DNA of 64,000 bases from Patescibacteria group bacterium (GTDB lineage: Bacteria > Patescibacteriota > Patescibacteriia > UBA9934), in assembly GCA_049296775.1 (NCBI GenBank), contig JBAQTB010000003.1, forward strand, positions 76,766 to 140,765, in the 5' to 3' direction. Within the stretch, counting starts at the first letter, position 1, and each line of letters opens with the position of its first letter. Shown here one piece after another: positions 9,669-60,474 of the stretch. The translations under genes and the position numbers were made by a program. A model generated the notes under the pieces. That model made no database searches. It worked only from the letters and a program-made list of their open reading frames with translations, and was not told the origin of the DNA.

Positions 9669-10061
9669 TTACCGTTCGATACGCTGCAACTTACCCTGTC
9701 TAGCGCGGATGTTTTTGTAATCCCATTGGATCTCCACAGCTTTGTCTAGCCAACGTAGGAGATCGGCTTCATTGATTTGAGCAACGGCGGTGTACCTGGC
9801 TTCTGCGGCTTTGAAAGAACCTTCTGACTTTAGGCCCGGTTCTTTGAAAGATTGGCCACTCCAAAAGAGCAGACGCACGCAATCTTTGAGCTTGTCATAA
9901 CCAACAATTGGATTCTCAGCTATAAACCAGACCGGATGTCCGTGCCACACTTTACTGTCTGCAGTTTTAAGCTGAGCCTCAATAAGTTTAGCTAATTTAT
10001 TACAAATAGCCTTATCGACTGGTGCTTGCTTGGCGTTATATGCTCTAATATCTGGGTGCAT
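9669..10061 (-). CDS. DUF1801 (YdhG-like) domain protein
   Basis: I placed the start at the internal ATG (10061), giving MHPDIRAYNAKQ... The upstream part of the ORF-track ORF looks non-coding. Confidence 0.5.
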   Translation of the reverse strand: MHPDIRAYNAKQAPVDKAICNKLAKLIEAQLKTADSKVWHGHPVWFIAENPIVGYDKLKDCVRLLFWSGQSFKEPGLKSEGSFKAAEARYTAVAQINEADLLRWLDKAVEIQWDYKNIRARQGKLQRIER

Positions 10062-10156
10062 AGGGGGGATTATTGTATAAATGTATATTAACACGGGCAT
10101 TGGGATAGGCGTACAGACGGGTCGGCGACCAGTCTCTACCGCGAATCTCCCTGTGA

Positions 10157-10267
10157 TCACCATCCTGAGGTGAATACCGCCTGTCCTGAACGAAGTTGAA
10201 GGAAAGGACAGTGATATCAGGCTCGTCACCACCTTAATCTTTCCTCCTTCCTCTTTAATCTCTCATC
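10157..10267 (+). promoter_or_regulatory. Conserved leader element, copy A (two hairpins + CT-rich TTAATCT direct-repeat core)
   Basis: About 85 nt are shared with the reverse complement of 49991..50072. The core ccttaatctttcctccttcctctttaatctc ends 5 nt before the ATG at 10272. Confidence 0.5.
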
Positions 10268-10271
10268 TAAT

Positions 10272-10733
10272 ATGCAAAGTAAGGCCGTGAGGGTCAAAGA
10301 CTATCTAGCGGAATTGCCAGCTGAGCGCCGGCAGGCTATTGAGGCGGTCCGGAAGGTGATTTTGAAAAGTTTACCTAAAGGTTACAAAGAAGCCATGGTG
10401 TACGGCATGATGGGTTATGTGGTACCGCTTAAAACTTACCCTAAAGGTTATTTGGATAATCCCAAGATGCCGTTGACGTATGTCGCTTTAGCCTCGCAGA
10501 AGAACTACATGGCCCTTTACCTGATTAACGTGTATACCGGCGCGAGTGTCGCGAAGTGGTTTACGGAGGCATACAAAGCAAGCGGCAAGAAGCTGGATAT
10601 GGGCAAGTCTTGCATCAGATTTAAGCATTTAGAGGATCTACCCCTAGACGTCGTCGCCAAAGCTGTTGCTCTGACTCCTGTCCCTGAGTTTATCGAGCTG
10701 TACGAACAAGGCCGTGTTTCACGGAAGAAGTGA
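10272..10733 (+). CDS. DUF1801 (YdhG-like) domain protein, paralog
   Basis: VKDYLAELPAERRQAIEAVRKVI is the typical DUF1801 N-terminus. It lies divergent from the paralog above. Confidence 0.5.
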   Translation: MQSKAVRVKDYLAELPAERRQAIEAVRKVILKSLPKGYKEAMVYGMMGYVVPLKTYPKGYLDNPKMPLTYVALASQKNYMALYLINVYTGASVAKWFTEAYKASGKKLDMGKSCIRFKHLEDLPLDVVAKAVALTPVPEFIELYEQGRVSRKK

Positions 10734-11088: not shown

Positions 11089-11802
11089 ATGAGAAAAAAA
11101 TTATTTCCTTCCGTGGCGGTATTAATGTCATCATTAATTATCGGAGGGGCTATTATTGTTGCTCAATCCATTAAGTCTGGGTCGTTTGACGCTTTGGATG
11201 GTTCTCGTGTTAGCTCCCAAGATTCTTCTCAACACGTTGAGGAGACCGGAATTACCGAAGAGATTCGTGAAGACGACTCTTTGCCTTCTTCGAGCTTTCA
11301 GCCGTTGGTAGTCACGGATTTGGATATGTATTATTCAAAAGCTTCGGAAAACTTAGCTGATTGTTGTGATATACCTAGCGAAACTCTAACATTTTTTCTC
11401 ACGAAAAGGAACATCGCTCAGCAGTCATTTACTGAAAATACTGAATGGCTAAAAACCGCTAAAACTGCAGATGCAACCGTTTGTGTTTTAGAGTGGAATA
11501 AACTACTTACCGATACTCAAAAACTTATTAACGAAGCTCAAAATTTAGTCGATGTGGTGAGCATTAATAATGCAGGCGCTGAAGAAATTAAGAGTCAAGC
11601 GCGTAGTTATATAAATTCCATTCAAAATAAAACGTATCCTAACAAGGCTTTGTTAGAGAATTTTATAAACACCTCTATCGTCAGGTTAGATAGCTTCACT
11701 GTTGATGTTAATACTGCCGCTGACCAATTTAATACTGCTTTAACTACGAGAGATTCATCGGGGGAAAACTTAAAAACATGTCTTTCATCCTACTTGCAAT
11801 AG
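11089..11802 (+). CDS. Secreted/membrane-anchored hypothetical protein
   Basis: An N-terminal hydrophobic segment. AT-rich. Confidence 0.4.
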   Translation: MRKKLFPSVAVLMSSLIIGGAIIVAQSIKSGSFDALDGSRVSSQDSSQHVEETGITEEIREDDSLPSSSFQPLVVTDLDMYYSKASENLADCCDIPSETLTFFLTKRNIAQQSFTENTEWLKTAKTADATVCVLEWNKLLTDTQKLINEAQNLVDVVSINNAGAEEIKSQARSYINSIQNKTYPNKALLENFINTSIVRLDSFTVDVNTAADQFNTALTTRDSSGENLKTCLSSYLQ

Positions 11803-13079: not shown

Positions 13080-13222
13080 AAGACACCCGTCCTTTGCAGT
13101 GGCGGTGCTATCAGGCTTATCGGATCTCCCGTTGAAAGTAGATCTATAAAGACTGGTAACACTCCCATTGGAAGGGATTGGTGGTAGGCCAATCGTCCCA
13201 AAATTGAATGGGTAATAAATAG

Positions 13223-13320
13223 GGAGGGATGACCGAGTTGGTCGATGGTACCGGCCTTATAAGCCGACAAACATTGCCTGAAAGCGTGTTTCGAGGGTTC
13301 GAATCCCTCTCCCTCCGCCA
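13223..13320 (+). tRNA. Type-II (long variable arm) Ser-like tRNA with apparent anticodon UAU
   Basis: The cloverleaf was folded by hand. Acceptor GGAGGGA/TCCCTCC, G73 and CCA are encoded. T-arm GAGGG-TTCGAAT-CCCTC. D-arm ACC...GGT. Anticodon stem CCGGC/GCCGA with loop CTTATAA (U33, A37). A 25-nt variable arm. Confidence 0.6.
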
Positions 13321-13462
13321 GATATTACTCATTCAATTTTGGAACGATCAGTGATTGTATTTTATAACATCCTTTTATTTCAACGTCAACTACATAAGTT
13401 TTATAAATTTATTTTAACATATTTATCGTCGAAGGTAATGTTTATCAACAACCGTATTTATT

Positions 13463-29922: not shown

Positions 29923-31647
29923 ATGTTCGCATATTATCATGAGCTCGGTTACACTGAGCGCGGTATGACTCAGTTAGAAGCTTTGGCGATTTTAAAAACG
30001 GGGGTAAATATTTTCCTAACGGGTGAACCTGGAGCTGGAAAATCTTACACCATTCGGCAGTACGTGAATTTTTTGCGTTCGAGCGCGATCGATCCGGCTA
30101 TCACCGCCTCCACCGGCATTGCCGCGACTCACATTGGTGGTATGACTCTGCATTCCTGGAGTGGGATTGGGATTAGTAAATCCATGAACGCGGGGGAGCT
30201 TAAGGAATTGGCGAATAAGGATCGATTGGCTAAGCGCATCAAGGCCACGCAAGTTTTGATCATTGATGAGATCTCGATGTTCGAAGGTCAGACTTTGAAT
30301 TTGGTCGATGCTGTGTGCAAGGTCATTAAGCAAAATGAAGAACCGTTCGGTGGCATGCAGATAATTTTCGTGGGTGACTTTTTCCAGTTGCCACCTGTCA
30401 GTCGGTCTGGTGACCCAACGCCACAATTTGCTTTTTCATCCGCGGCTTGGTTGGCGGCTGATCCGGTGATCTGTTATTTGTCAGAACAGCATCGTCAGGA
30501 GGACGAAACGTTTTTGGAGATTTTATCTGCCTTGCGCCGGGGCACCATTAATGACGATCACAAGGCCTTATTGAGTAGTCGCCAGGCCACGTTTGTAGAT
30601 GACAGTTTCTCTGAGATGACCAAATTATATTCGCACAATGTAGACGTGGACCGCATGAATACACAGGCTTTAGCGCAGTTAGATACTGACCCTAGGACTT
30701 ACAGAATGCATGCGTACGGGGCACCACCACTTATTGATCAGCTTAAGCGCGGCTGTTTGTCTCCGGAATTGTTAGAGTTAAAACTTGGGGCCAGAGTCAT
30801 GTTTACTAAGAACAGTTCAGACGGGAGTTATGTGAATGGCACAACCGGAGAGGTGAGTGCTTTTTCCAAAGAGAACGGTTACCCGATAGTGAAGTTACGC
30901 TCTGGCCGGCAAGTTGAGGCTGCCACTACGGAATGGAAGATTGAAGCTGAGGGTAAGAGCGTAGCGGCGATTGTGCAGATTCCGCTGCGCTTAGCTTGGG
31001 CGATGACGGTGCACAAGAGTCAGGGTATGTCCTTGGACGCGGCGTTGATCGACCTGTCTAGTGCTTTTGCCTATGGCCAGGGTTATGTAGCGTTGTCGCG
31101 GGTGCGGTCTTTGAGCGGGTTGCATTTAAAAGGTTTGAACCAACGGGCGTTAGAAGTGGATCCTACCGTGTTAGCACAGGATGAAACGTTCAGGCAGCGG
31201 TCACTAGAGGCGCGTGATACTTTGGCGGCTTTAACGGAGGAGCATTTAAAAAAGGCGCATGAGGAGTTTATTGTGACGCGTGGTGGGTCGTTAAGTGGGG
31301 GAGGCTTTGTGGGCAGGCCAAAAGCCGTCCAGAAAAAAGCGAAGCGTTACGAGCAGACTTTAGCGCTCGTAGTCGGTGGTATGACGATCGCCGAAGCTGC
31401 GAATGAGAGGAGTAGGACTGAGTTCACGATTTTTGAGCACTTGGAAGAGTTGCGTGATCTCAAAGTTTTACCGTTAGACAAGTTGGGGCATTTGATCGCC
31501 GGCAAAGAGGATGATGTGAAATTGATTCAGGCTAAATTCAAGCAGTTGGACACTCAATTGCTGAAACCAGTTCATGAGCATTTCAAGGGTGAGCATAGTT
31601 ACGACGTCATTCGTTTAGCGCGCTTATTCATTCCAGTGAATCACTAG
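29923..31647 (+). CDS. PIF1/RecD-like SF1 DNA helicase (alternative start ATG at about 29965)
   Basis: Walker A TGEPGAGKS and Walker B LIIDEISM. The motif AMTVHKSQGMSLD is PIF1/RecD-specific. Confidence 0.75.
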   Translation: MFAYYHELGYTERGMTQLEALAILKTGVNIFLTGEPGAGKSYTIRQYVNFLRSSAIDPAITASTGIAATHIGGMTLHSWSGIGISKSMNAGELKELANKDRLAKRIKATQVLIIDEISMFEGQTLNLVDAVCKVIKQNEEPFGGMQIIFVGDFFQLPPVSRSGDPTPQFAFSSAAWLAADPVICYLSEQHRQEDETFLEILSALRRGTINDDHKALLSSRQATFVDDSFSEMTKLYSHNVDVDRMNTQALAQLDTDPRTYRMHAYGAPPLIDQLKRGCLSPELLELKLGARVMFTKNSSDGSYVNGTTGEVSAFSKENGYPIVKLRSGRQVEAATTEWKIEAEGKSVAAIVQIPLRLAWAMTVHKSQGMSLDAALIDLSSAFAYGQGYVALSRVRSLSGLHLKGLNQRALEVDPTVLAQDETFRQRSLEARDTLAALTEEHLKKAHEEFIVTRGGSLSGGGFVGRPKAVQKKAKRYEQTLALVVGGMTIAEAANERSRTEFTIFEHLEELRDLKVLPLDKLGHLIAGKEDDVKLIQAKFKQLDTQLLKPVHEHFKGEHSYDVIRLARLFIPVNH

Positions 31648-31683
31648 CTTTAATCTTTCATCCTTCCTTTTTAATCTCTAATC
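31647..31683 (+). promoter_or_regulatory. CT-rich TTAATCT direct-repeat core motif, copy C
   Basis: gctttaatctttcatccttcctttttaatctctaatc, 47 nt upstream of the ABC-F gene. Confidence 0.45.
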
Positions 31684-31729
31684 CGTGTCATTGCTTAATT
31701 ATCCCAATTAGGCTAGACTACTGGCCATT

Positions 31730-33187
31730 ATGGATCAAGGTGATGTCATTATTCGATTTGAGCAGGTATCCTTTGGCTACGATGCTGAAAATCTCGTCTT
31801 GGACGCGGCTGATTTTTCTGTCCGGGAAGACACTAAAATGACGATCATGGGTCAGAACGGTGCTGGAAAAAGCACCATTCTGAAGTTGCTGACGGGCGCT
31901 TTAAAACCTGACCGTGGTCAGATTCACGTTAAGGCCGGGTCTAGAATTGCTATTGCCACTCAGGTTATGGCGCCGGAGCACAAGACTAGGACTATTGCTG
32001 AGTTTTTCGCGACCGCTTTTGAGGAGACCCGTCATGATTTGCCTAAGCTGATTACTGACGTGTTAGAGACGGTGAATTTGCAAACTGTTTTAGACAAGAA
32101 GATCGAGGATTTTTCTGGTGGGCAACAGGCGAGATTATTGTTGGCCTATGCCTTGATCCAGGAGCCAGACATTTTGCTTTTAGATGAGCCGACTAACAAC
32201 CTGGATGCTGATGGCATTGCGCACCTGACTGGTTTTTTGATCATGTATCCAAAAACTGTCTTGGTGATTTCTCACGACGCCGATTTCTTGAATACTTTTA
32301 CTGAGGGTGTGTTGCACTTGGATGTTTACACCGGCAAGGTCGATAAGTATGACGGTAACTATTTTGACGTAGTAGAAGAAATTACGGCGCGTTTAGAGCG
32401 TGATCGCATGAAGAATGCCCGGTTGTTGAAAGAGATTCAGGATAGAAAGGACAAGATCAACTTCTTTGCCCACAAGGGCGGTAAGATGCGTAAGTTGGCT
32501 AGCAAGCTCCGCGATCAGGTAGAAGACGCTGAAGAAAACATGGTTGAAGTGCGCCGGGATGACCGGACAATTCGTGATTTTGAAATTCCAGCGCAGCCGT
32601 GGCATGACAATGTGGTCACTATCAACTCCTTCAAGATCGTGAAAAATCATGAGGCAGAAAGAGTTGAGGCTAAGATCTTTTTACGTAAAGGTCAGCGGTT
32701 GTTGATCTCCGGACCAAACGGTATTGGTAAGAGTACCTTTTTGCGCTCCTTGGCTGAGGGTAAAGACGAAGGCGCAGCGATCGCTAAAAACGTGTCCGTT
32801 GGTTATTACCGCCAGGATTTTTCCGGTTTAGATTTCCAGAAGTCAGCCTATGACTCATTAGCTGAGATGATGTCGGTGCCGGATAACCAAGTTATTAGAG
32901 CCGTAGGTGCCCATTTCTTATTGAATGGCGATGCCTTGGCGACCCGGGTGGGAGCTTTGTCTGAAGGTCAAAAAGGTTTGTTGTGTTTTGCTAGATTCGT
33001 CTTGCAGAAGCCGGGCTTGCTGATTTTGGATGAGCCGACTAACCACATTAACTTCCGTCATTTGCCGGTTATCGCCAAGGCGCTTGAGAAGTACGAAGGT
33101 ACAATGATCGTGGTTAGTCACGTCCCAGACTTTGTGAGTCAGATTAATTTCCCGCAAGAGTTGGATTTGGGTAAGTATTTGAAGTAA
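31730..33187 (+). CDS. ABC-F family ATPase (tandem ABC domains, no TMD)
   Basis: Two Walker A motifs (GQNGAGKST, GPNGIGKST) and two signature motifs. Confidence 0.8.
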   Translation: MDQGDVIIRFEQVSFGYDAENLVLDAADFSVREDTKMTIMGQNGAGKSTILKLLTGALKPDRGQIHVKAGSRIAIATQVMAPEHKTRTIAEFFATAFEETRHDLPKLITDVLETVNLQTVLDKKIEDFSGGQQARLLLAYALIQEPDILLLDEPTNNLDADGIAHLTGFLIMYPKTVLVISHDADFLNTFTEGVLHLDVYTGKVDKYDGNYFDVVEEITARLERDRMKNARLLKEIQDRKDKINFFAHKGGKMRKLASKLRDQVEDAEENMVEVRRDDRTIRDFEIPAQPWHDNVVTINSFKIVKNHEAERVEAKIFLRKGQRLLISGPNGIGKSTFLRSLAEGKDEGAAIAKNVSVGYYRQDFSGLDFQKSAYDSLAEMMSVPDNQVIRAVGAHFLLNGDALATRVGALSEGQKGLLCFARFVLQKPGLLILDEPTNHINFRHLPVIAKALEKYEGTMIVVSHVPDFVSQINFPQELDLGKYLK

Positions 33188-38406: not shown

Positions 38407-38613
38407 ATGATGACAGGTACAATCAAGCGTTTGACTGATAAGGGTTTTGGTTTCATCACCCCAGATGAGGCAGGCGCAAAGGATGTATTCTTCCACACTT
38501 CTGCACTCGTTGACGTTATGTTCGACGATCTTCGCGAAGGTGACAAGGTTTCTTTCGAAACCGAAGAGTCTGACAAGGGTCCTCGCGCTGTAAACGTACA
38601 GCGCATCGCCTAA
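38407..38613 (+). CDS. cspA: Cold-shock protein (CspA family)
   Basis: MTGTIKRLTDKGFGFITPDE... (RNP1 GFGFI) and VFFHTSAL (RNP2). Terminator at 38624..38656. Confidence 0.85.
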   Translation: MMTGTIKRLTDKGFGFITPDEAGAKDVFFHTSALVDVMFDDLREGDKVSFETEESDKGPRAVNVQRIA

Positions 38614-48243: not shown

Positions 48244-48891
48244 TTACCGGCCGACGCTGGCCAGTAACTCTTTGTGACTCGGCACGGGTAGATGCGTCCA
48301 CACGGCGTAGTCAGGCGTGAGCCCTTGTGCTCGTGTCAGAAGCCGGCGGACCAGGCTGGGCCGCAACCCGGGATTGAGGTGCAGCAGCGCAGCTGTAAAC
48401 AATTTCTCAGCTTGTAAATATTTGCCGTCCGGATCATCTGTTTGAATGTAGTGCCGGCGGCTGAGTTCTTCATGTTCGTAGGGAGCGCCTCTGTGGGCAC
48501 GGCGACCACAGGATTGCATGGGACCAAAATTCCAGATGATACGCGTGCCGCGTTCCACAGATCGGCAGACGTGTTTGGCTGCGTAGAACGCGGTGTGGGT
48601 GTCTTTAGGCCCGAGATCGATGAGCCAATCCGCTTGGTCCTTTTTTGACTCAGTGGCGTGATATTCGCCGTGTGTCACGTCGAGATTGACGTAGGCGTAC
48701 GGGGAGTAGAGCCTGGATGGGCCCGTGTAGGGCATGAGCCAGGTTTGTCGCCAAACACTGCGGTCTGGCTCAGACTCGAGCAACTGGTCGATACGGAGTA
48801 CCTCGCCCGTGAAGCCGGTACGATTGTCGATGTATGGCACCAGGATGCCACGTCGTGTAGTCAGCTCCCTGCGGAGTCGGTCGAAGATCAT
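48244..48891 (-). CDS. Hypothetical protein (high GC, about 58%)
   Basis: ORF only. A hairpin terminator (gcaccgtcagggacggtgc) lies at about 48196..48222. Confidence 0.35.
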   Translation of the reverse strand: MIFDRLRRELTTRRGILVPYIDNRTGFTGEVLRIDQLLESEPDRSVWRQTWLMPYTGPSRLYSPYAYVNLDVTHGEYHATESKKDQADWLIDLGPKDTHTAFYAAKHVCRSVERGTRIIWNFGPMQSCGRRAHRGAPYEHEELSRRHYIQTDDPDGKYLQAEKLFTAALLHLNPGLRPSLVRRLLTRAQGLTPDYAVWTHLPVPSHKELLASVGR

Positions 48892-49063
48892 TTTTTGCTC
48901 CTTTCAAAGGTCGTAAATACGACTCAGCAGCTTAGGCGAGGACAGCCTGTTTGTCAATTGATTTACAAGTTGCAAAAAATATGTCAGCCTTGACGGGCTT
49001 AGTTGATTTAATCGGGGGTGATTGGATCTTGACTGAGTAGTGTTTGTTGAGAGGGGGTGAGGG

Positions 49064-49434: not shown

Positions 49435-49902
49435 TCAAACTCGGCCGTGTTTGAAATAGTGCGCCATGCGCCTGATGTTTTCGGCAAACTTGGGACGATC
49501 TCTGGTTTCGTATTCATCCCACTTGGGGTAGCGTGTGACGAAGCCCCAAAGAGGGTGGCCAGTGTCTTTGGTTAGTGACACGCTCTCGTGATGAATGAAC
49601 GTTGGCTGGGCATTGGTATACCTCTCCAGCGTGCATTCGATTTCGATTGTGCTGTTCAGCGGCACGGTGTCAGGGACATGCTCCGTTAGCTCGATGCTGA
49701 TCGAGGTTTCGTCTGGGTCACTCGTATCGATGACCCAGCGGAGACACAAGTGCGCATTCACCATCTGGTACAGGGTGACGCGGTTCTTGCCGTCGTCCTT
49801 CACCAGTTGGCAAGCTGACGTTGTGTCGATCCCGGCTTGGACCAGGATTAGTTTGATCGCATCAACGAGCTCCCTGGCATCATTGTGTAGGGTATCATCC
49901 AT
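49435..49902 (-). CDS. Hypothetical protein
   Basis: ORF with a CCAGGAGGAATTC RBS. Preceded by leader-element copy B. Confidence 0.35.
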   Translation of the reverse strand: MDDTLHNDARELVDAIKLILVQAGIDTTSACQLVKDDGKNRVTLYQMVNAHLCLRWVIDTSDPDETSISIELTEHVPDTVPLNSTIEIECTLERYTNAQPTFIHHESVSLTKDTGHPLWGFVTRYPKWDEYETRDRPKFAENIRRMAHYFKHGRV

Positions 49903-49990
49903 GAATTCCTCCTGGCGTAATTGCCGATCAGTTATCGACTAATCAGCTTACAAAGACTTACGGCATGTGTCAATCAGTGGGTAGTTATTG

Positions 49991-50120
49991 GAGATTAAAG
50001 AGAAAAGAAGAAAGATTAAGGTGGTGACGAGCCTGATATCACGGTCCTTCGGTATTCACCTCAGGATGGTGAGTGCGATAAGGTGAAGAGATTAAAGAGG
50101 AAAGTCGAAAGATTAAAGTC
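49991..50120 (-). promoter_or_regulatory. Conserved leader element copy B (contains two tandem CT-rich core motifs, B1 49991..50021 and B2 50085..50120)
   Basis: The reverse complement of 49991..50072 matches 10157..10267, with 22/22 identity in the first hairpin and about 50 nt in the core. It is oriented toward the minus-strand gene starting at 49902. Confidence 0.5.
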
Positions 50121-50224
50121 GGACCATCCCGGGGCTACTACCTTGTCCTGTGAGAAGTTGAGGTGGTTTTTGCCTTAATTTTAGTGTAAACTTACTCAGG
50201 AATTGAGTTAATCTGTCTAAGACT

Positions 50225-52020: not shown

Positions 52021-52053
52021 GCTTGTAATTATCTTTATTCTCTACAAATAAAA

Positions 52054-52135
52054 CAAAAAGCACCTGTACGGCAGTGAGCAGATGCTCTTTGCCACGCAGG
52101 TGCGTGAGGGGGTCTAGACGTCGGTCGGTGGTTTT
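52054..52135 (-). repeat. Terminator-hairpin repeat, family variant 1 (copy 1)
   Basis: aaaaagcacctgtacggcagtgagcagatgctctttgccacgcaggtgcgtgagggggtctagacgtcggtcgg is about 80 nt identical to 53074..53150. It overlaps the stop of the minus gene 52114..52329. Confidence 0.7.
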
Positions 52136-52329: not shown

Positions 52330-52627
52330 GTTTACCTCCTAAGAGTGAGTTCAGTAGAGCGTTTCGAGCTCCACCATACGAATCCTGACAATAAAACATT
52401 CAGGACGTGTCACTATAGCATAAAACATGTCTTTGTCAATATAGAAACCCGAGGCTCCCATAGCGCACCTGAGTGCGGATAATGCTATGATTTGGGTATT
52501 AAGGAGAGTTATTTAGCTTGACAAAGACAGAAATTTTGCTATCTTTAGTTATATTCAGGAGAGTCACGTAAACCTTATCATTGAGACATTGTAAAGTTTA
52601 CGGGGTTCTTCTTCCCCGGGAGTAGTC

Positions 52628-52969: not shown

Positions 52970-53073
52970 CCTACGAGCGCAACCTGCACCCGCGCGAGTC
53001 CAAGGAACACATTACTGTGTCTCCCAAAACTCGCCGGGTGCGTTTTTTATTTACACTTGATTTATTGTTGTTA

Positions 53074-53150
53074 AACAAAAAGCACCTGTACGGCAGTGAG
53101 CAGATGCTCTTTGCCACGCAGGTGCGTGAGGGGGTCTAGACGTCGGTCGG
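53074..53150 (-). repeat. Terminator-hairpin repeat, family variant 1 (copy 2)
   Basis: Near-identical to 52054..52135. It lies 30 nt downstream of the stop of 53185..53574. Confidence 0.7.
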
Positions 53151-53184
53151 CGGCGGTTGTACGCGCACGTTCGCTTATGGTCGA

Positions 53185-55504: not shown

Positions 55505-55626
55505 GCTAATTAGGACTCAATTGAGCCTCTAAATTCTTACACCAAAATTGCCATTTTGTCAACACAAAATAGCCAAAAATAGCCAAAAATAGCTGTAAAT
55601 AGTGGTATTTTAGTGGGATAATTTTT

Positions 55627-55684
55627 AAAAAAAACGCACTCTACGGAACGCAAGCCGGATTGGCTCTTGTCCCGCGAGTGCGCT
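55627..55684 (-). repeat. Terminator-hairpin repeat, family variant 2 (copy 1, core only)
   Basis: aaaaaaaacgcactctacggaacgcaagccggattggctcttgtcccgcgagtgcgc ends 3 nt before the stop of 55687..56520. Confidence 0.7.
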
Positions 55685-55686
55685 AG

Positions 55687-56520
55687 TTAGTGGTCGAATA
55701 GACCGTCGGCGATGGAGATGTATGACTGCATCGCGTCGACGTCGATGCGGTCCTCGGGGGCTGGGGTCCTAAGACGACCCTCCGCGTCGAGGCTCAGGTT
55801 GGGAAACTTCTCGGCGAGCGGTCGGATGTCTTTCATGCCTTCGTGTGACAGTCCGCCCGCGACCCCAATGCCGAGGTCAGTGTGCCGACCACCGATGGCT
55901 CGTACGTATGCTTCGGCGATTTCGACGTCCATCGGGATGCCGAGTCCGCCGCTCGCATCGATGAGGACGTCGGTGATGTATGGTTTGTACCAGTCGAGTT
56001 CTTTGGCCACGCGCTCGGGGTTGTTGTCATGCACCTCTAATGCCTTGCGGTTGAGTTGGAGCACGACCCGCATGCGCTTCCCGATGTCAATGCGGCTTGG
56101 CTCGGGCCACGTCACGTTGAGCTGGAAGCCGTCGAGGTAGCGTCCGCCGAGATCCATGAGCTGGTCGAGTTGCTCGGGCAGGGTGTGGTAGTCGTCGCTG
56201 GCGTAGTGGATGAGGTTGACGGTCCGCCGGTGTGGTGGGAATAGTCCTACGATGTCGAAAACATTGGGGTAGCGATTGGGCCATTTGTTGGTCTCGCCGC
56301 GCAGCGTCTTACTGCTCGCCAGCACACCGACCATGAGTACTCGCGTGCTCCAGTTCGGCAGATCGTCGAGAGAGGCAAGCGCCGCCGCGACCTCCTTCTT
56401 TGTCATGAAACCTGTAACACCAATGTACGGCGACATTACAACCCCTTGAGGACGATGGGATATCGTCACTCTGTCGTAAAAACGACTTTGTATATTAACA
56501 ATCAAATATGCTTTTGTCAA
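55687..56520 (-). CDS. TIM-barrel enzyme with phosphoribosylanthranilate-isomerase (TrpF)-like motifs (tentative)
   Basis: LIDASGGLGIPMD and GIGVAGGLSHEGM resemble the TrpF LLDxxxGGSGxxFDW and LAGGLxxxN motifs. This is weak. Confidence 0.3.
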   Translation of the reverse strand: MTKAYLIVNIQSRFYDRVTISHRPQGVVMSPYIGVTGFMTKKEVAAALASLDDLPNWSTRVLMVGVLASSKTLRGETNKWPNRYPNVFDIVGLFPPHRRTVNLIHYASDDYHTLPEQLDQLMDLGGRYLDGFQLNVTWPEPSRIDIGKRMRVVLQLNRKALEVHDNNPERVAKELDWYKPYITDVLIDASGGLGIPMDVEIAEAYVRAIGGRHTDLGIGVAGGLSHEGMKDIRPLAEKFPNLSLDAEGRLRTPAPEDRIDVDAMQSYISIADGLFDH

Positions 56521-56574
56521 GGATTATATGGTAAAAATATGCGTAAATACCGATATTAAGGAATGATAAACCTG

Positions 56575-56675
56575 CTAAAAACAAAAACGCACTCTACGGA
56601 ACGCAAGCCAGATTGGCTCTTGTTCCGCGAGTGCGCGAGGGGGGTGTTACAGGGAGGGGCCGTCATCGGGGCCGA
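56575..56675 (-). repeat. Terminator-hairpin repeat, family variant 2 (copy 2, core + 45-nt extension)
   Basis: About 95 nt are identical (2 mismatches) to 57848..57945. The extension is read out of frame by 56663..57241. Confidence 0.75.
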
Positions 56676-57241
56676 GCTCGTGCGTCCTCGACGTAGTCGG
56701 TGATAAGCCATACTTCGGTGTCGACCGTGATGCGCCGGTAGGAGACGCTCTCCGACGCCTCGGGATTCGAGACGAACATGTCCTGGTCCCATCGACGAAC
56801 GCGCTCGACCACCTGGACGATCGAGCGCTCGCCATCCCGTTCGATGCTCACGATCTCGAGCTCGCCATCAACGCGAGAAGATCCGCCCCGCTCAGCGTAG
56901 TGCTGGCGGACTCGCGCAATCGCCTCGGGGTCGTCCTCGATGAGGAGAAACTCGGTCGTCGGCCAGATGCCATCCACGAAGTAATCGGCGTAGGCGTCGA
57001 CATCTCCCGTCTCAATGGCTGAGTACTTCGCAGTCACGACGTCTTGAAGGAAACGGCCTTCCGGGGTGCGGCCAAGCTCGTCAGCGTCACCGGGGACGAT
57101 TTGTGACCGTGACATAAGGTTTGAGCAACCAGTGAGGAGGGCGATAGTGGCGAGTAAGATGATCCCTAATCGGAACAAGCTCAGCCTTTGTGTGAGGATG
57201 TTGTAAGACACACCATTCCTTTGTTTCATGAATAAGAGCAT
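56663..57241 (-). CDS. Lipoprotein, hypothetical (3' end inside the repeat; possible frameshifted tail)
   Basis: Lipobox LLTGCS. It ends ...ARPR* within the repeat, whereas the paralogous repeat copy encodes ...ELGPDDGPSL* in another frame. Confidence 0.4.
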   Translation of the reverse strand: MLLFMKQRNGVSYNILTQRLSLFRLGIILLATIALLTGCSNLMSRSQIVPGDADELGRTPEGRFLQDVVTAKYSAIETGDVDAYADYFVDGIWPTTEFLLIEDDPEAIARVRQHYAERGGSSRVDGELEIVSIERDGERSIVQVVERVRRWDQDMFVSNPEASESVSYRRITVDTEVWLITDYVEDARARPR

Positions 57242-57847
57242 ATCTATTACTTACAGTAGTGATCATGCAGGTTGATTCGTTGTGTAGTTAGCTTTATGCT
57301 CCATTTCTAGGTTTTCGGCTTGAATCGTTCATTTCGACAGTCTACGCCTACACATAGTGGCATGCAAGTACCCGCGACATTCACTCATACCAATAAAATA
57401 AAGGTGCTAGCAGAGTTAAACAGATAAATTAAATGACCACCCCGATGGGATGGTCACACGTGGCGCTTGTGCGCCTAACTTTGTGGCGGATTATTCGTGT
57501 CGATCGACTGCTTCCACAGATACCCTGCGACATAGCCTTGTAGAGTGATGGACGCCAAGAGCATGAGTAAGAAAGGCCATTGTATCGTTTGGTTTAGCGA
57601 ATTATGCAGAATGGTAATCACAATCGACGTGGAGAGGATTTTCGCGAGGAAAGATGGTGTCTGCAAGGGGCCTCCCTGGTTTGGTTTCCAAGGGGGCGTG
57701 CCCCTCGCTTCCGAGGCTCTTGGACAAGCCAAGCGCTGCGAAGGCGAGGGCACCATCAAAGTCGAACATTTATGGTACTTGATGGGTTTGGGATTGTCAA
57801 GGCTAAATGGCCTAAATTAGGTGTAAATAGTTGGTTTTAGCGAATAA

Positions 57848-57945
57848 AGAAAAACGCACTCTATGGAACGCAAGCCAGATTGGCTCTTGTTCCGCGAGTG
57901 CGCGAGGGGGGTGTTACAGGGAGGGGCCGTCATCGGGGCCGAGTT
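57848..57945 (-). repeat. Terminator-hairpin repeat, family variant 2 (copy 3, core + extension)
   Basis: The extension encodes the in-frame C-terminal tail ELGPDDGPSL* of 57914..58336. Confidence 0.75.
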
Positions 57946-58336
57946 CGTAACGCTCGATGCGTCTTACGAGTGTGATGGGCGCTTCAATGCCGTCGACGTC
58001 GATGGCGAAGAAGGTACAGCCTTCGTGTCCGATCAGTACGTTGAAACGTGGCCATTGTCCATTTTTCGGTGCCGTGTGATTGAGGAGAGTGGTGTTAAGA
58101 CACTCCGTGTTCCAAGAAACTCGGTAGCCAACTTGGAATGGTCTGTCGGTCTTGGCCTCAAAGACGATCACCGTTTTCCAGCCCCACCACCGCAGCCACA
58201 GATGGTTCCACCACCGTGTCGGAGGCACGGTGCGGTCACCCTCCGCGGTGTAGCCTCGGCATAAAGTACTAAACTCTCGTTTTTTCCACACCGGATCCTC
58301 CGCAAGGGCAGCAAAACGCCGCCACTCTATCGCCAA
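57914..58336 (-). CDS. Hypothetical Trp-rich protein with repeat-encoded C-terminal tail
   Basis: ORF. Its last 10 codons lie within the repeat. Confidence 0.35.
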   Translation of the reverse strand: MAIEWRRFAALAEDPVWKKREFSTLCRGYTAEGDRTVPPTRWWNHLWLRWWGWKTVIVFEAKTDRPFQVGYRVSWNTECLNTTLLNHTAPKNGQWPRFNVLIGHEGCTFFAIDVDGIEAPITLVRRIERYELGPDDGPSL

Positions 58337-59015: not shown

Positions 59016-59512
59016 TACTTGGTGGCAACGTAGCAGTTGAGAACGCTCTGGAAGGCGTTCGAATCATCGTATGTTTTGCGGTTCTCTGTATCGACGCCAT
59101 CGACGCGGTCTATCGTGCCGTCCGCGCTCTCATCGATCATTGTGACCGTGAAATGCCTGTCGAGTCCTTGCCGCTCGACCCCCACCATCGTCGCGAAGAC
59201 GACGAGGGTCTGGCTGCCCGAGGGGTTCAACCGAAGGAGGACTTCGGTGCCAATGAAGGCAAGGGTCGGACAGGTGACCTGCGCGCGAAAGGTCTGGGTT
59301 CCGCCGTCGGCGTCGGAGGGCGCGGTCTGCTGGAGAAGAAACACCGCCTTTTTCGCTGCTGCGTCGGCGGGGATGGCGGGCTCGGAAGCGACTGCGGTGG
59401 AGGAAAGGGTCAGAAAAAAGGCGCAGATGAACGGAACGAACATTGGAACTCCTGTGAGGAAGGCAAGATGCCATTCGACTAATAAAATACCAAAAAATAG
59501 TCCTTTTGTCAA
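59015..59512 (-). CDS. Secreted hypothetical protein
   Basis: Has a signal peptide. A consensus promoter lies upstream (TTGACA-17-TATTTT). Confidence 0.4.
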   Translation of the reverse strand: MTKGLFFGILLVEWHLAFLTGVPMFVPFICAFFLTLSSTAVASEPAIPADAAAKKAVFLLQQTAPSDADGGTQTFRAQVTCPTLAFIGTEVLLRLNPSGSQTLVVFATMVGVERQGLDRHFTVTMIDESADGTIDRVDGVDTENRKTYDDSNAFQSVLNCYVATK

Positions 59513-59540
59513 GGCAAAATCGTCTAAAATACAGGTTTTT

Positions 59541-59568: not shown

Positions 59569-59636
59569 TTTTGGGTCGATGTTATTTCTCGTTGATATAA
59601 TTTGGCTAATATAGGCCAATAATATGCGTATTTACC

Positions 59637-59665
59637 TTGACAAAAGGGTATTTTTCTGCTATGAT
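59637..59665 (+). promoter_or_regulatory. Sigma-70 consensus promoter (TTGACA - 17 nt - TATGAT)
   Basis: ttgacaaaagggtatttttctgctatgat lies 25 nt upstream of the ATG at 59690. The same TTGACAAAAG extended -35 recurs upstream of other island genes. Confidence 0.55.
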
Positions 59666-59689
59666 ATGTCGTTACCATGAAGCTCTCAG

Positions 59690-60281: not shown

Positions 60282-60356
60282 TGGTGACCTCACCGGGAAT
60301 CGAACCCGGATTTAAGGCTTGAGAAGCCTCTGTCCTAACCGTTAGACGATGAGGCC
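60282..60356 (-). tRNA. tRNA-Glu (anticodon CUC)
   Basis: The reverse complement folds as a cloverleaf: acceptor GGCCTCA/TGAGGTC, D-arm GTC...GAC, anticodon stem GAGGC/GCCTT with loop TTCTCAA, T-arm CCGGG-TTCGATT-CCCGG, and an encoded CCA. Confidence 0.8.
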
Positions 60357-60474
60357 AGACTAAACTGGCAAATGAGTGTTGGCTAGCTATGAACGTCAGG
60401 ATAATAGCAAACACTTTTGGTTTAGTCAAAGGCCAGGAGTCGTGAATCTGTCACTAATTCTGTGTGAGTAGGGC

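Follow-up and report, generated by a model that had tools for sequence, protein, structure and literature searches.

A modular CT-rich repeat in three promoter-bearing spacers of a Patescibacteria genome

The window analysed here, a stretch of 64,000 nucleotides from a Patescibacteria group bacterium whose genome is akin to Uhrbacteria-type genomes as judged by ABC-F similarity, carries a short CT-rich sequence in three intergenic spacers, which are termed loci A, B and C. Locus A separates two divergent DUF1801 genes, of which the plus-strand one (gene A) encodes MFZ2682059.1, a DUF1801 protein. Locus B is again a divergent spacer, lying between an orphan gene at 49435-49902 (gene B, product MFZ2682103.1), for which no homologue was found among 5.8 billion proteins, and another gene without known function. 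At locus C a PIF1-type helicase gene and an ABC-F gene lie on both sides of the spacer and are co-directional. All three loci are 5' spacers with predicted promoters and none is convergent. The DUF1801 gene, the orphan gene and the ABC-F gene are without functional link to each other, and the DUF1801 protein and the gene B product are non-paralogous (BLASTP E=5.4). Spacers across the window are short and the genome appears tightly packed. The parts of the repeat, together with two promoter-like sites given for context, are as follows.

10157..10179, plus strand: module 1 of copy A, hairpin TCACC-ATCCTGA-GGTGA plus ATACCG; TCACCATCCTGAGGTGAATACCG, identical at 23 of 23 positions to 50072-50050 on the minus strand
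10180..10203, plus strand: 24-nt segment found in copy A only and absent from B
10204..10231, plus strand: module 2 of copy A, AAGGACAGTGATATCAGGCTCGTCACCA, identical at 27 of 28 positions to 50049-50022 on the minus strand
10232..10262, plus strand: core A, CCTTAATCTTTCCTCCTTCCTCTTTAATCTC, a match to the core pattern
31648..31678, plus strand: core C, a solo core directly after the PIF1-helicase stop codon at 31645-31647
31691..31719, plus strand: predicted ABC-F promoter (context, outside the repeat), TTGCTT-N17-TAGACT, followed by 10 nt and the ATG at 31730
49945..49973, minus strand: promoter-like TTGACA-N17-TAAGCT (context, from reading the sequence), 17 nt downstream of core B1 and before the gene at 49435-49902
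49991..50021, minus strand: core B1, CCTTAATCTTTCTTCTTTTCTCTTTAATCTC, a match to the core pattern
50022..50072, minus strand: modules 1 and 2 of copy B, without the 24-nt segment of A
50088..50118, minus strand: core B2, a solo core 15 nt upstream of module 1 of B

The constant unit of the repeat is a core of 31 bp which, including two extra 5' bases, reads C[C/T]TTAATCT-TTC-NN-C-Y-TT-Y-CT-Y-TTTAATCTC. It is made up of two CTTTAATCT(C) direct repeats on either side of a CT-rich centre, with 21 bp (two helical turns) from the start of one repeat to the start of the other, and it can also be read as four YTTNNTC heptads. The initial annotation, made from the sequence alone, had described four such cores upstream of three unrelated genes, with TTAATCT half-sites 21 bp apart. 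Every sequence and position it listed is present in the window, the spacing was measured as it had said, and the pattern TTAATCTTTCNNCYTTYCTYTTTAATCTC has four matches with no mismatches at the three loci (10234 and 31650 on the plus strand, 49991 and 50088 on the minus strand), compared with none in 100 dinucleotide-preserving shuffles. No further or degenerate copies were found in the window with blastn-short and an nhmmer profile, and a candidate for a degenerate second core upstream of A was rejected, as only a 6-mer matches and nhmmer found nothing. The edges of the core are sharp and are identical in the solo copies, and the flanks of the four copies have nothing in common. The distance from core to start codon is 9 nt at A, 89 nt at B1 and 47-52 nt at C, in agreement with the figures first given, within an overall range of 9-186 nt. 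It had also been claimed that each copy has the same orientation relative to its downstream gene; this is so at C, but A and B are divergent spacers in which either orientation faces a gene, thus the shared orientation carries little weight and C alone is informative.

The four cores share their half-sites and nine of the 14 positions of the centre (TTTC-NN-C-Y-TT-Y-CT-Y), and pairwise they differ at 3-5 of 31 positions (10-16%) in a star-like manner. Since the centre is shared as well as the half-sites and the divergence is star-like, the cores appear to descend from one ancestor rather than to be binding sites that evolved independently. Both 9-nt half-sites are invariant or nearly so across the four copies and it is the centre that varies, with five of the six variable columns falling within the central 10 of the 31 (hypergeometric P=0.007 post hoc, P=0.077 in an unbiased scan test). 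A and B1 differ at four positions, three of which are within those same central 10 columns (Fisher P about 0.005, with the centre chosen post hoc). These statistics are weak because there are only three loci and four copies, and the pattern suggests either that the half-sites may be under stronger constraint or that the CT-rich centre may be hypermutable. A small ORF on the opposite strand was also considered and rejected, as the reading frames differ between copies.

A long form of the repeat is limited to A (10157-10262, plus strand) and B1 (50072-49991, minus strand), where an upstream part of about 50 nt, made up of modules 1 and 2, is common to both copies at 93-100% identity. That a long element is present in both A and B and starts with a shared hairpin had been noticed from the outset, and the complete identity of module 1 bears this out. 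Module 2 has the consensus AAGGAC[A/C]GTGATATCAGGCTCGTCACCA and, taken together with the core, is identical at 55 of 59 positions (93%) between A (10204-10262) and B1 (50049-49991). Copy A can form a further hairpin of 7 bp, the 5' arm of which (CTGTCCT, 10181-10187) is within the 24-nt segment and the 3' arm of which (AGGACAG, 10205-10211) follows it. It had been said that this extra hairpin is found in A and not in B, which is correct for the whole stem, but B retains the 3' arm (AGGACC), and this orphan arm points to a deletion in B rather than to a stem that is intact but shorter. Furthermore, the copies share spacer sequence that is non-functional, which argues for copying rather than for operators that evolved independently. 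An ECF-sigma promoter within module 2 (AGGAC...CGTC) was rejected, with its spacer being 14 nt and not 16-17 nt and the solo cores being without module 2.

Conservation was assessed against five loci from related genomes that have the gene order PIF1, ABC-F, ECF-sigma and in which ABC-F is 87-90% identical. The core is absent at the orthologous PIF1/ABC-F spacer in four relatives (L022, L023/L024, L026 and L027), and the relatives keep a promoter-like block, TNGACT-N17-TAGA(C/G)T-N9/10-ATG, before the ABC-F gene. This predicted ABC-F promoter is positionally conserved in five genomes and aligns with TTGCTT-N17-TAGACT-N10-ATG of the window, where core C follows the stop codon of the helicase gene and precedes the predicted -35 hexamer by 12 nt. 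As the relatives have kept the promoter and do not have the core, core C is taken to be a lineage-specific addition upstream of the promoter, and it is outside an ABC-F transcript made from that predicted promoter. Absence from relatives was one of the outcomes that the initial annotation had said would count against its reading, and at locus C it is what was found, so that its description of the element as conserved holds within the window genome only. In about 70 kb of DNA from the relatives, no copy was found either by nhmmer with a profile of the core or by a covariance model built from the long forms A and B, which recovered the known copies and nothing else, and a further 18.5 kb of flanking sequence of the same genome (Logan contigs) was likewise free of new copies. 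The DUF1801 family is widespread, and the nearest homologues of the DUF1801 gene (66-71% identity) lie directly behind an upstream gene without a leader. An arrangement that is kept in all relatives examined is that of greA, a 68-aa cold-shock-domain gene (about 38407-38613, plus strand; L021 13032-13238) and the second ABC-F gene, which has no demonstrated link to the CT-rich core.

Wider searches gave no match of copy A by blastn against phage and plasmid collections and 0 matches each for modules 1 and 2 in viral contigs, and searching the literature for the motif strings brought up only primers and sequences with no relation to the repeat. The core pattern itself matches nine times in GTDB representative genomes, nine times in JGI metagenomes and 0 times in IMG/VR. 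The GTDB and JGI matches come from Bacteroidota, a single Parcubacteria genome and further phyla, and they are CT-rich heptamer arrays or four-heptad units. Neither module accompanies any of them, some fall within K/E/R-rich coding sequence of the other strand, and they have no neighbouring gene in common. Whilst they resemble the core in their heptamers (CTTTAAT, CTTTCCT and CTTTCAT) and sometimes in having a four-heptad unit (L001-L009, L012-L020), they differ in being without the modules and in their heterogeneous contexts, and they are treated here as probable low-complexity look-alikes and not as homologues. It is seen from such look-alikes that sequences of this word composition turn up more often than uniform chance predicts. 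Degenerate CTTTNNT arrays, which also use the words CTTTACT and CTTTCGT, occur in unrelated phyla and are either intergenic or antisense to K/E/R-rich coding sequence, with examples at L003 6310-6510, L017 about 11450-11600 and L007 860-1000, the last of which has a 7-nt periodicity for about 130 nt and several word families.

Other repeated sequences are present in the window. A GC-rich long-hairpin repeat of about 60-100 nt has five copies (52051-52131, 53073-53153, 55626-55728, 56579-56681 and 57846-57948) that form two sub-families of like architecture, with outer stems GCACCTG/CAGGTGC and CGCACTC/GAGTGCG, and the differences between these stems look compensatory. On the plus strand it has an A-run 5' and GAGGGGG 3' of the hairpin, whilst read on the minus strand it resembles a terminator made of a hairpin and a U-tract; no match to it was found in Rfam. 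A block CCTTGACAAAAG...N17...TATGAT/TAATAT/TATTAT is repeated at 56491-56522, 59483-59514, 59631-59667, 60400-60431 and 52415-52542, it precedes several small genes and tRNA-Glu (60282-60356, minus strand) and it looks like a strong promoter consensus. A tRNA of 98 nt at 13223-13320 has an encoded CCA and, with its long variable arm, a class II shape, yet ARAGORN assigns it the anticodon UAU (Ile); it lies between 26-nt inverted repeats (13192-13217 and 13323-13348) that are 92% complementary.

At locus A seven homologues with the N-terminus MQSKA confirm ATG 10272 as the start of the gene, and the second half-site of core A contains TAATCT (10256-10261), a -10-like TAnnnT hexamer with exactly 10 nt between it and this ATG. 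This TAATCT-N10-ATG has the geometry of TAGACT-N10-ATG at the ABC-F gene and of TACAAT-N10-ATG at the divergent gene 9669-10061. The three cases of TAnnnT exactly 10 nt before an ATG are at 10059-10077 (minus strand), 10256-10274 (plus strand) and 31714-31732 (plus strand), with the ABC-F arrangement conserved in four relatives. TAnnnT near start codons in general is found in 14 of 36 genes against about 30% expected, an enrichment that is not significant. An SD-like motif is found in just eight of the 44 genes of the window that have a sizeable upstream spacer, and this scarcity together with TAnnnT-N10-ATG suggests that mRNAs in this lineage may be leaderless or near-leaderless. At locus B the adjacent minus-strand genes 48244-48891 and 49435-49902 have near-identical promoter-like TTGACA-N17-TAAGCTGNTNAGTCG sequences upstream (48900-48965 and 49945-49973), a pair that may be a second case of re-used upstream DNA.

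The repeat is real and lineage-specific, and at C it lies upstream of a predicted promoter that is conserved. It is most likely recently copied promoter-side DNA, that is a modular dispersed repeat the copies of which would be related by descent, through copying and not convergence, and would have landed in promoter-bearing spacers. Any activity would then be on the DNA, next to or inside sigma-70-type promoters, with the core being a re-used promoter-side module in which a protein may recognise the two same-face half-sites; at locus A it is possible that RNA polymerase itself uses the second half-site TAATCT as a -10-like hexamer. We infer activity at the level of DNA and protein binding of the core from the sequence, and we put the probability of such a promoter-side role, with a protein on two same-face half-sites and possibly TAATCT as a -10 at A, at roughly 0.4. 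Against it, the distance between the core and the predicted -35 hexamer is inconsistent, being 12 nt at C and 17 nt at B1, with the core overlapping the promoter at A. The shared operator for one transcription factor that the initial annotation had favoured survives in part, as same-face half-sites in promoter spacers are compatible with a DNA-level site, but a regulon under a single factor is unproven given the copied spacer sequence, the unlinked genes and a search in which no candidate binding protein or cognate regulator for the core was found. A fixed promoter position, linked targets and an identifiable regulator, which are the marks of an operator or regulon, were likewise not found.

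A second possibility, the main rival but one which on balance we doubt, is that the repeat is inert and decaying. Its copies would be fragments of a once longer sequence that spread through recombination, illegitimate or homologous, or through a mobile element now extinct, and they would be tolerated only in spacers, without a regulatory role. It fits with this that the relatives are without the element, that the copies are few and include truncated or solo forms, that B retains an orphan 3' hairpin arm and that the cores have diverged in a star-like manner by 10-16%, as do the other repeat families of the neighbouring 52-58 kb region and the ABC-F promoter that is kept in relatives which have no core. 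It fits less well with half-sites of 9 nt that are invariant or nearly so in four copies when the centre is variable, with sharp and identical core boundaries in the solo copies and with every copy being in a 5' spacer near a predicted promoter, and inert DNA would be disfavoured in a genome that appears tightly packed, with such short spacers.

It is unlikely that the core is a mobile cis-regulatory cassette, in which same-face -10-like boxes would act as a portable promoter or operator, spreading without a recognisable transposase and rewiring accessory genes. If this were true then DUF1801, the orphan gene and ABC-F would have been rewired in a lineage that makes little use of Shine-Dalgarno sequences.

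Quite unlikely is a simpler form of portability in which the core is a self-contained promoter, with TTAATC as a weak -35, TAATCT as the -10 and a 16-nt spacer, that would give a near-leaderless mRNA at A and extra upstream promoters at B and C. TAATCT does have the three key -10 positions (T-12, A-11 and T-7) and at A its distance to the verified ATG is 10 nt, a spacing that two other genes of the window share, whilst single TTAATCT motifs precede the genes at 50208 and 58435, the latter as TGnTAATCT. Promoter re-use before unrelated genes is also documented in prokaryotes (PMC3575422). However, one and the same 9-mer would not be expected to serve as both -35 and -10, TTAATC-N16-TAATCT read as a promoter has a poor -35 hexamer (three of six positions), better predicted promoters are already present downstream at B and C, and a consensus promoter scan called nothing on the strand of the core.

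The other option that had been offered was a CU-rich, anti-SD-like RNA leader, and a cis-acting RNA leader of any kind, whether structured or CU-rich and unstructured, that regulates translation or termination of the downstream genes is now improbable. Weaker promoter-like sites can be read from the sequence ahead of the entire element, at A (TATATT, 10085-10090) and at B (TTAACT-N17-TACACT, about 50212-50184), and thus transcription through the element is possible; core C would be part of the PIF1 mRNA, at its 3' end, the core is within a G-free stretch of 37-52 nt in three of the four copies, and modules 1 and 2 are each predicted to be able to form a 5-bp hairpin, with complementary loops (CCUGA/UCAGG). 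The predicted folds do not favour a structured RNA, as the z-scores of A, B and C are -0.31, -0.93 and -1.02, which is within the shuffled range, and none of the minimum-free-energy folds pairs any base of the core. A covariance model of the hairpin part and a search for compensatory changes had been proposed, and in the RNAalifold consensus of A and B, from only two copies, 0 of 14 pairs vary, no pair varies in a 5+4 bp hairpin of module 2, and no homologue beyond the known copies was found in the relatives or any collection scanned. The element has no Rfam 15 match even at E<=10, with local scans at E<=10 giving chance miRNA and sRNA matches only and the scan of the whole window at gathering thresholds giving two tRNAs only. 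In addition the 7-bp hairpin of A is half-deleted in B, the start-codon distance varies widely and the nearest DUF1801 homologues have no leader.

The term leader is itself contradicted at C, where the conserved ABC-F promoter is downstream of a core that relatives do not have; at B the best promoter-like site is also downstream of the element. The fold z-scores, the lack of covariation, the half-deleted hairpin and the promoters at C and B together count against the leader hypothesis. TCACCACCTTAA resembles the 3' end of 16S rRNA, and there is no rRNA within the window; an anti-SD role of the CU-rich tract is unlikely because SD-like motifs precede so few genes and CCUCC is found in only one of the four cores.

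The weakest explanation, that A and B1 are the inverted ends or recombination sites of a mobile element around a 39.7-kb segment, or that the repeat is a MITE or a set of iterons, is very improbable, for although directly repeated sites with a spacing of 21-22 bp are found in transposon ends and plasmid iterons, the 40 kb or so from A to B contains ordinary chromosomal genes (GreA, HPPK, MsrA, GlmS, an ECF sigma factor and two ABC-F) and no recombinase, so that the inverted pair are not transposon ends, whilst part of the segment has the same gene order in relatives, Pfam scans of the window found no transposase, integrase or Rep domain, neither terminal inverted repeats nor target-site duplications are present, C and B2 consist of the core alone, and there was no phage, plasmid or viral match.

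To our knowledge almost nothing is known of transcriptional control in candidate-phyla-radiation bacteria, and if the core of this probably copied promoter-side DNA is active, such a bacterium would offer in it a compact and clear case of a promoter or operator being re-used. If it is inert then it would be one more species-specific intergenic repeat. In either case the element is not a conserved riboswitch-like leader and there is no demonstrable regulon.

Several known systems have features in common with the repeat. Half-sites of the AraC/XylS type are 21 bp apart beside a -35 hexamer, and the direct repeats of OmpR/PhoB and CtrA are likewise operators on one face of the helix. The core resembles all of these in having near-identical direct half-sites two helical turns apart that are upstream of, or over, a promoter, but here the distance to the -35 is not fixed, no cognate regulator gene was found, and the copies share spacer sequence, which independently evolved operators normally do not.

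Pneumococcal BOX elements and the BIMEs of E. coli are modular intergenic repeats, and like them the repeat is a species-specific mosaic of separable modules (1, 2 and core) that occur in varied combinations in spacers. It differs from them in that there is no sequence similarity, the core is non-palindromic and is unpaired in predicted folds, no REP-type transposase was seen, and there are only three loci in 82 kb. With respect to REP, REPIN and BIME sequences more generally, the core is unpaired with z of at least -1.0 and no transposase-like domain is found in the window, whilst the ends of the element, TCACCATC... and ...TTAATCTC, do not form the inverted repeats that a MITE would have.

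Putative mobile promoters (PMPs; Matus-Garcia, Nijveen & van Passel 2012) are cases of similar upstream DNA before unrelated genes in one genome (commentary PMC3575422), and the published search window for them is -150 to -50 of start codons (PMC3575422). The pair of A and B exceeds the identity of at least 80% over at least 50 nt used for PMPs and precedes non-paralogous coding sequences. Within the published window B is wholly inside (-147 to -89), but the 59-nt block of A is at -68 to -10 with only 19 nt inside, and copy A as a whole is at -115 to -10 and is broken by the 24-nt indel, thus the pair falls outside the published filter. A further difference is that the constant unit here is only 31 bp and is also found alone. 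The likeness is that 59 nt of non-coding DNA are upstream of non-paralogous genes at 93% identity, along with a separate block identical at 23 of 23 positions, and that this DNA is not tied to a known mobile element and is without an Rfam match. By this comparison putative mobile promoters would seem to be the closest described counterpart of the repeat.
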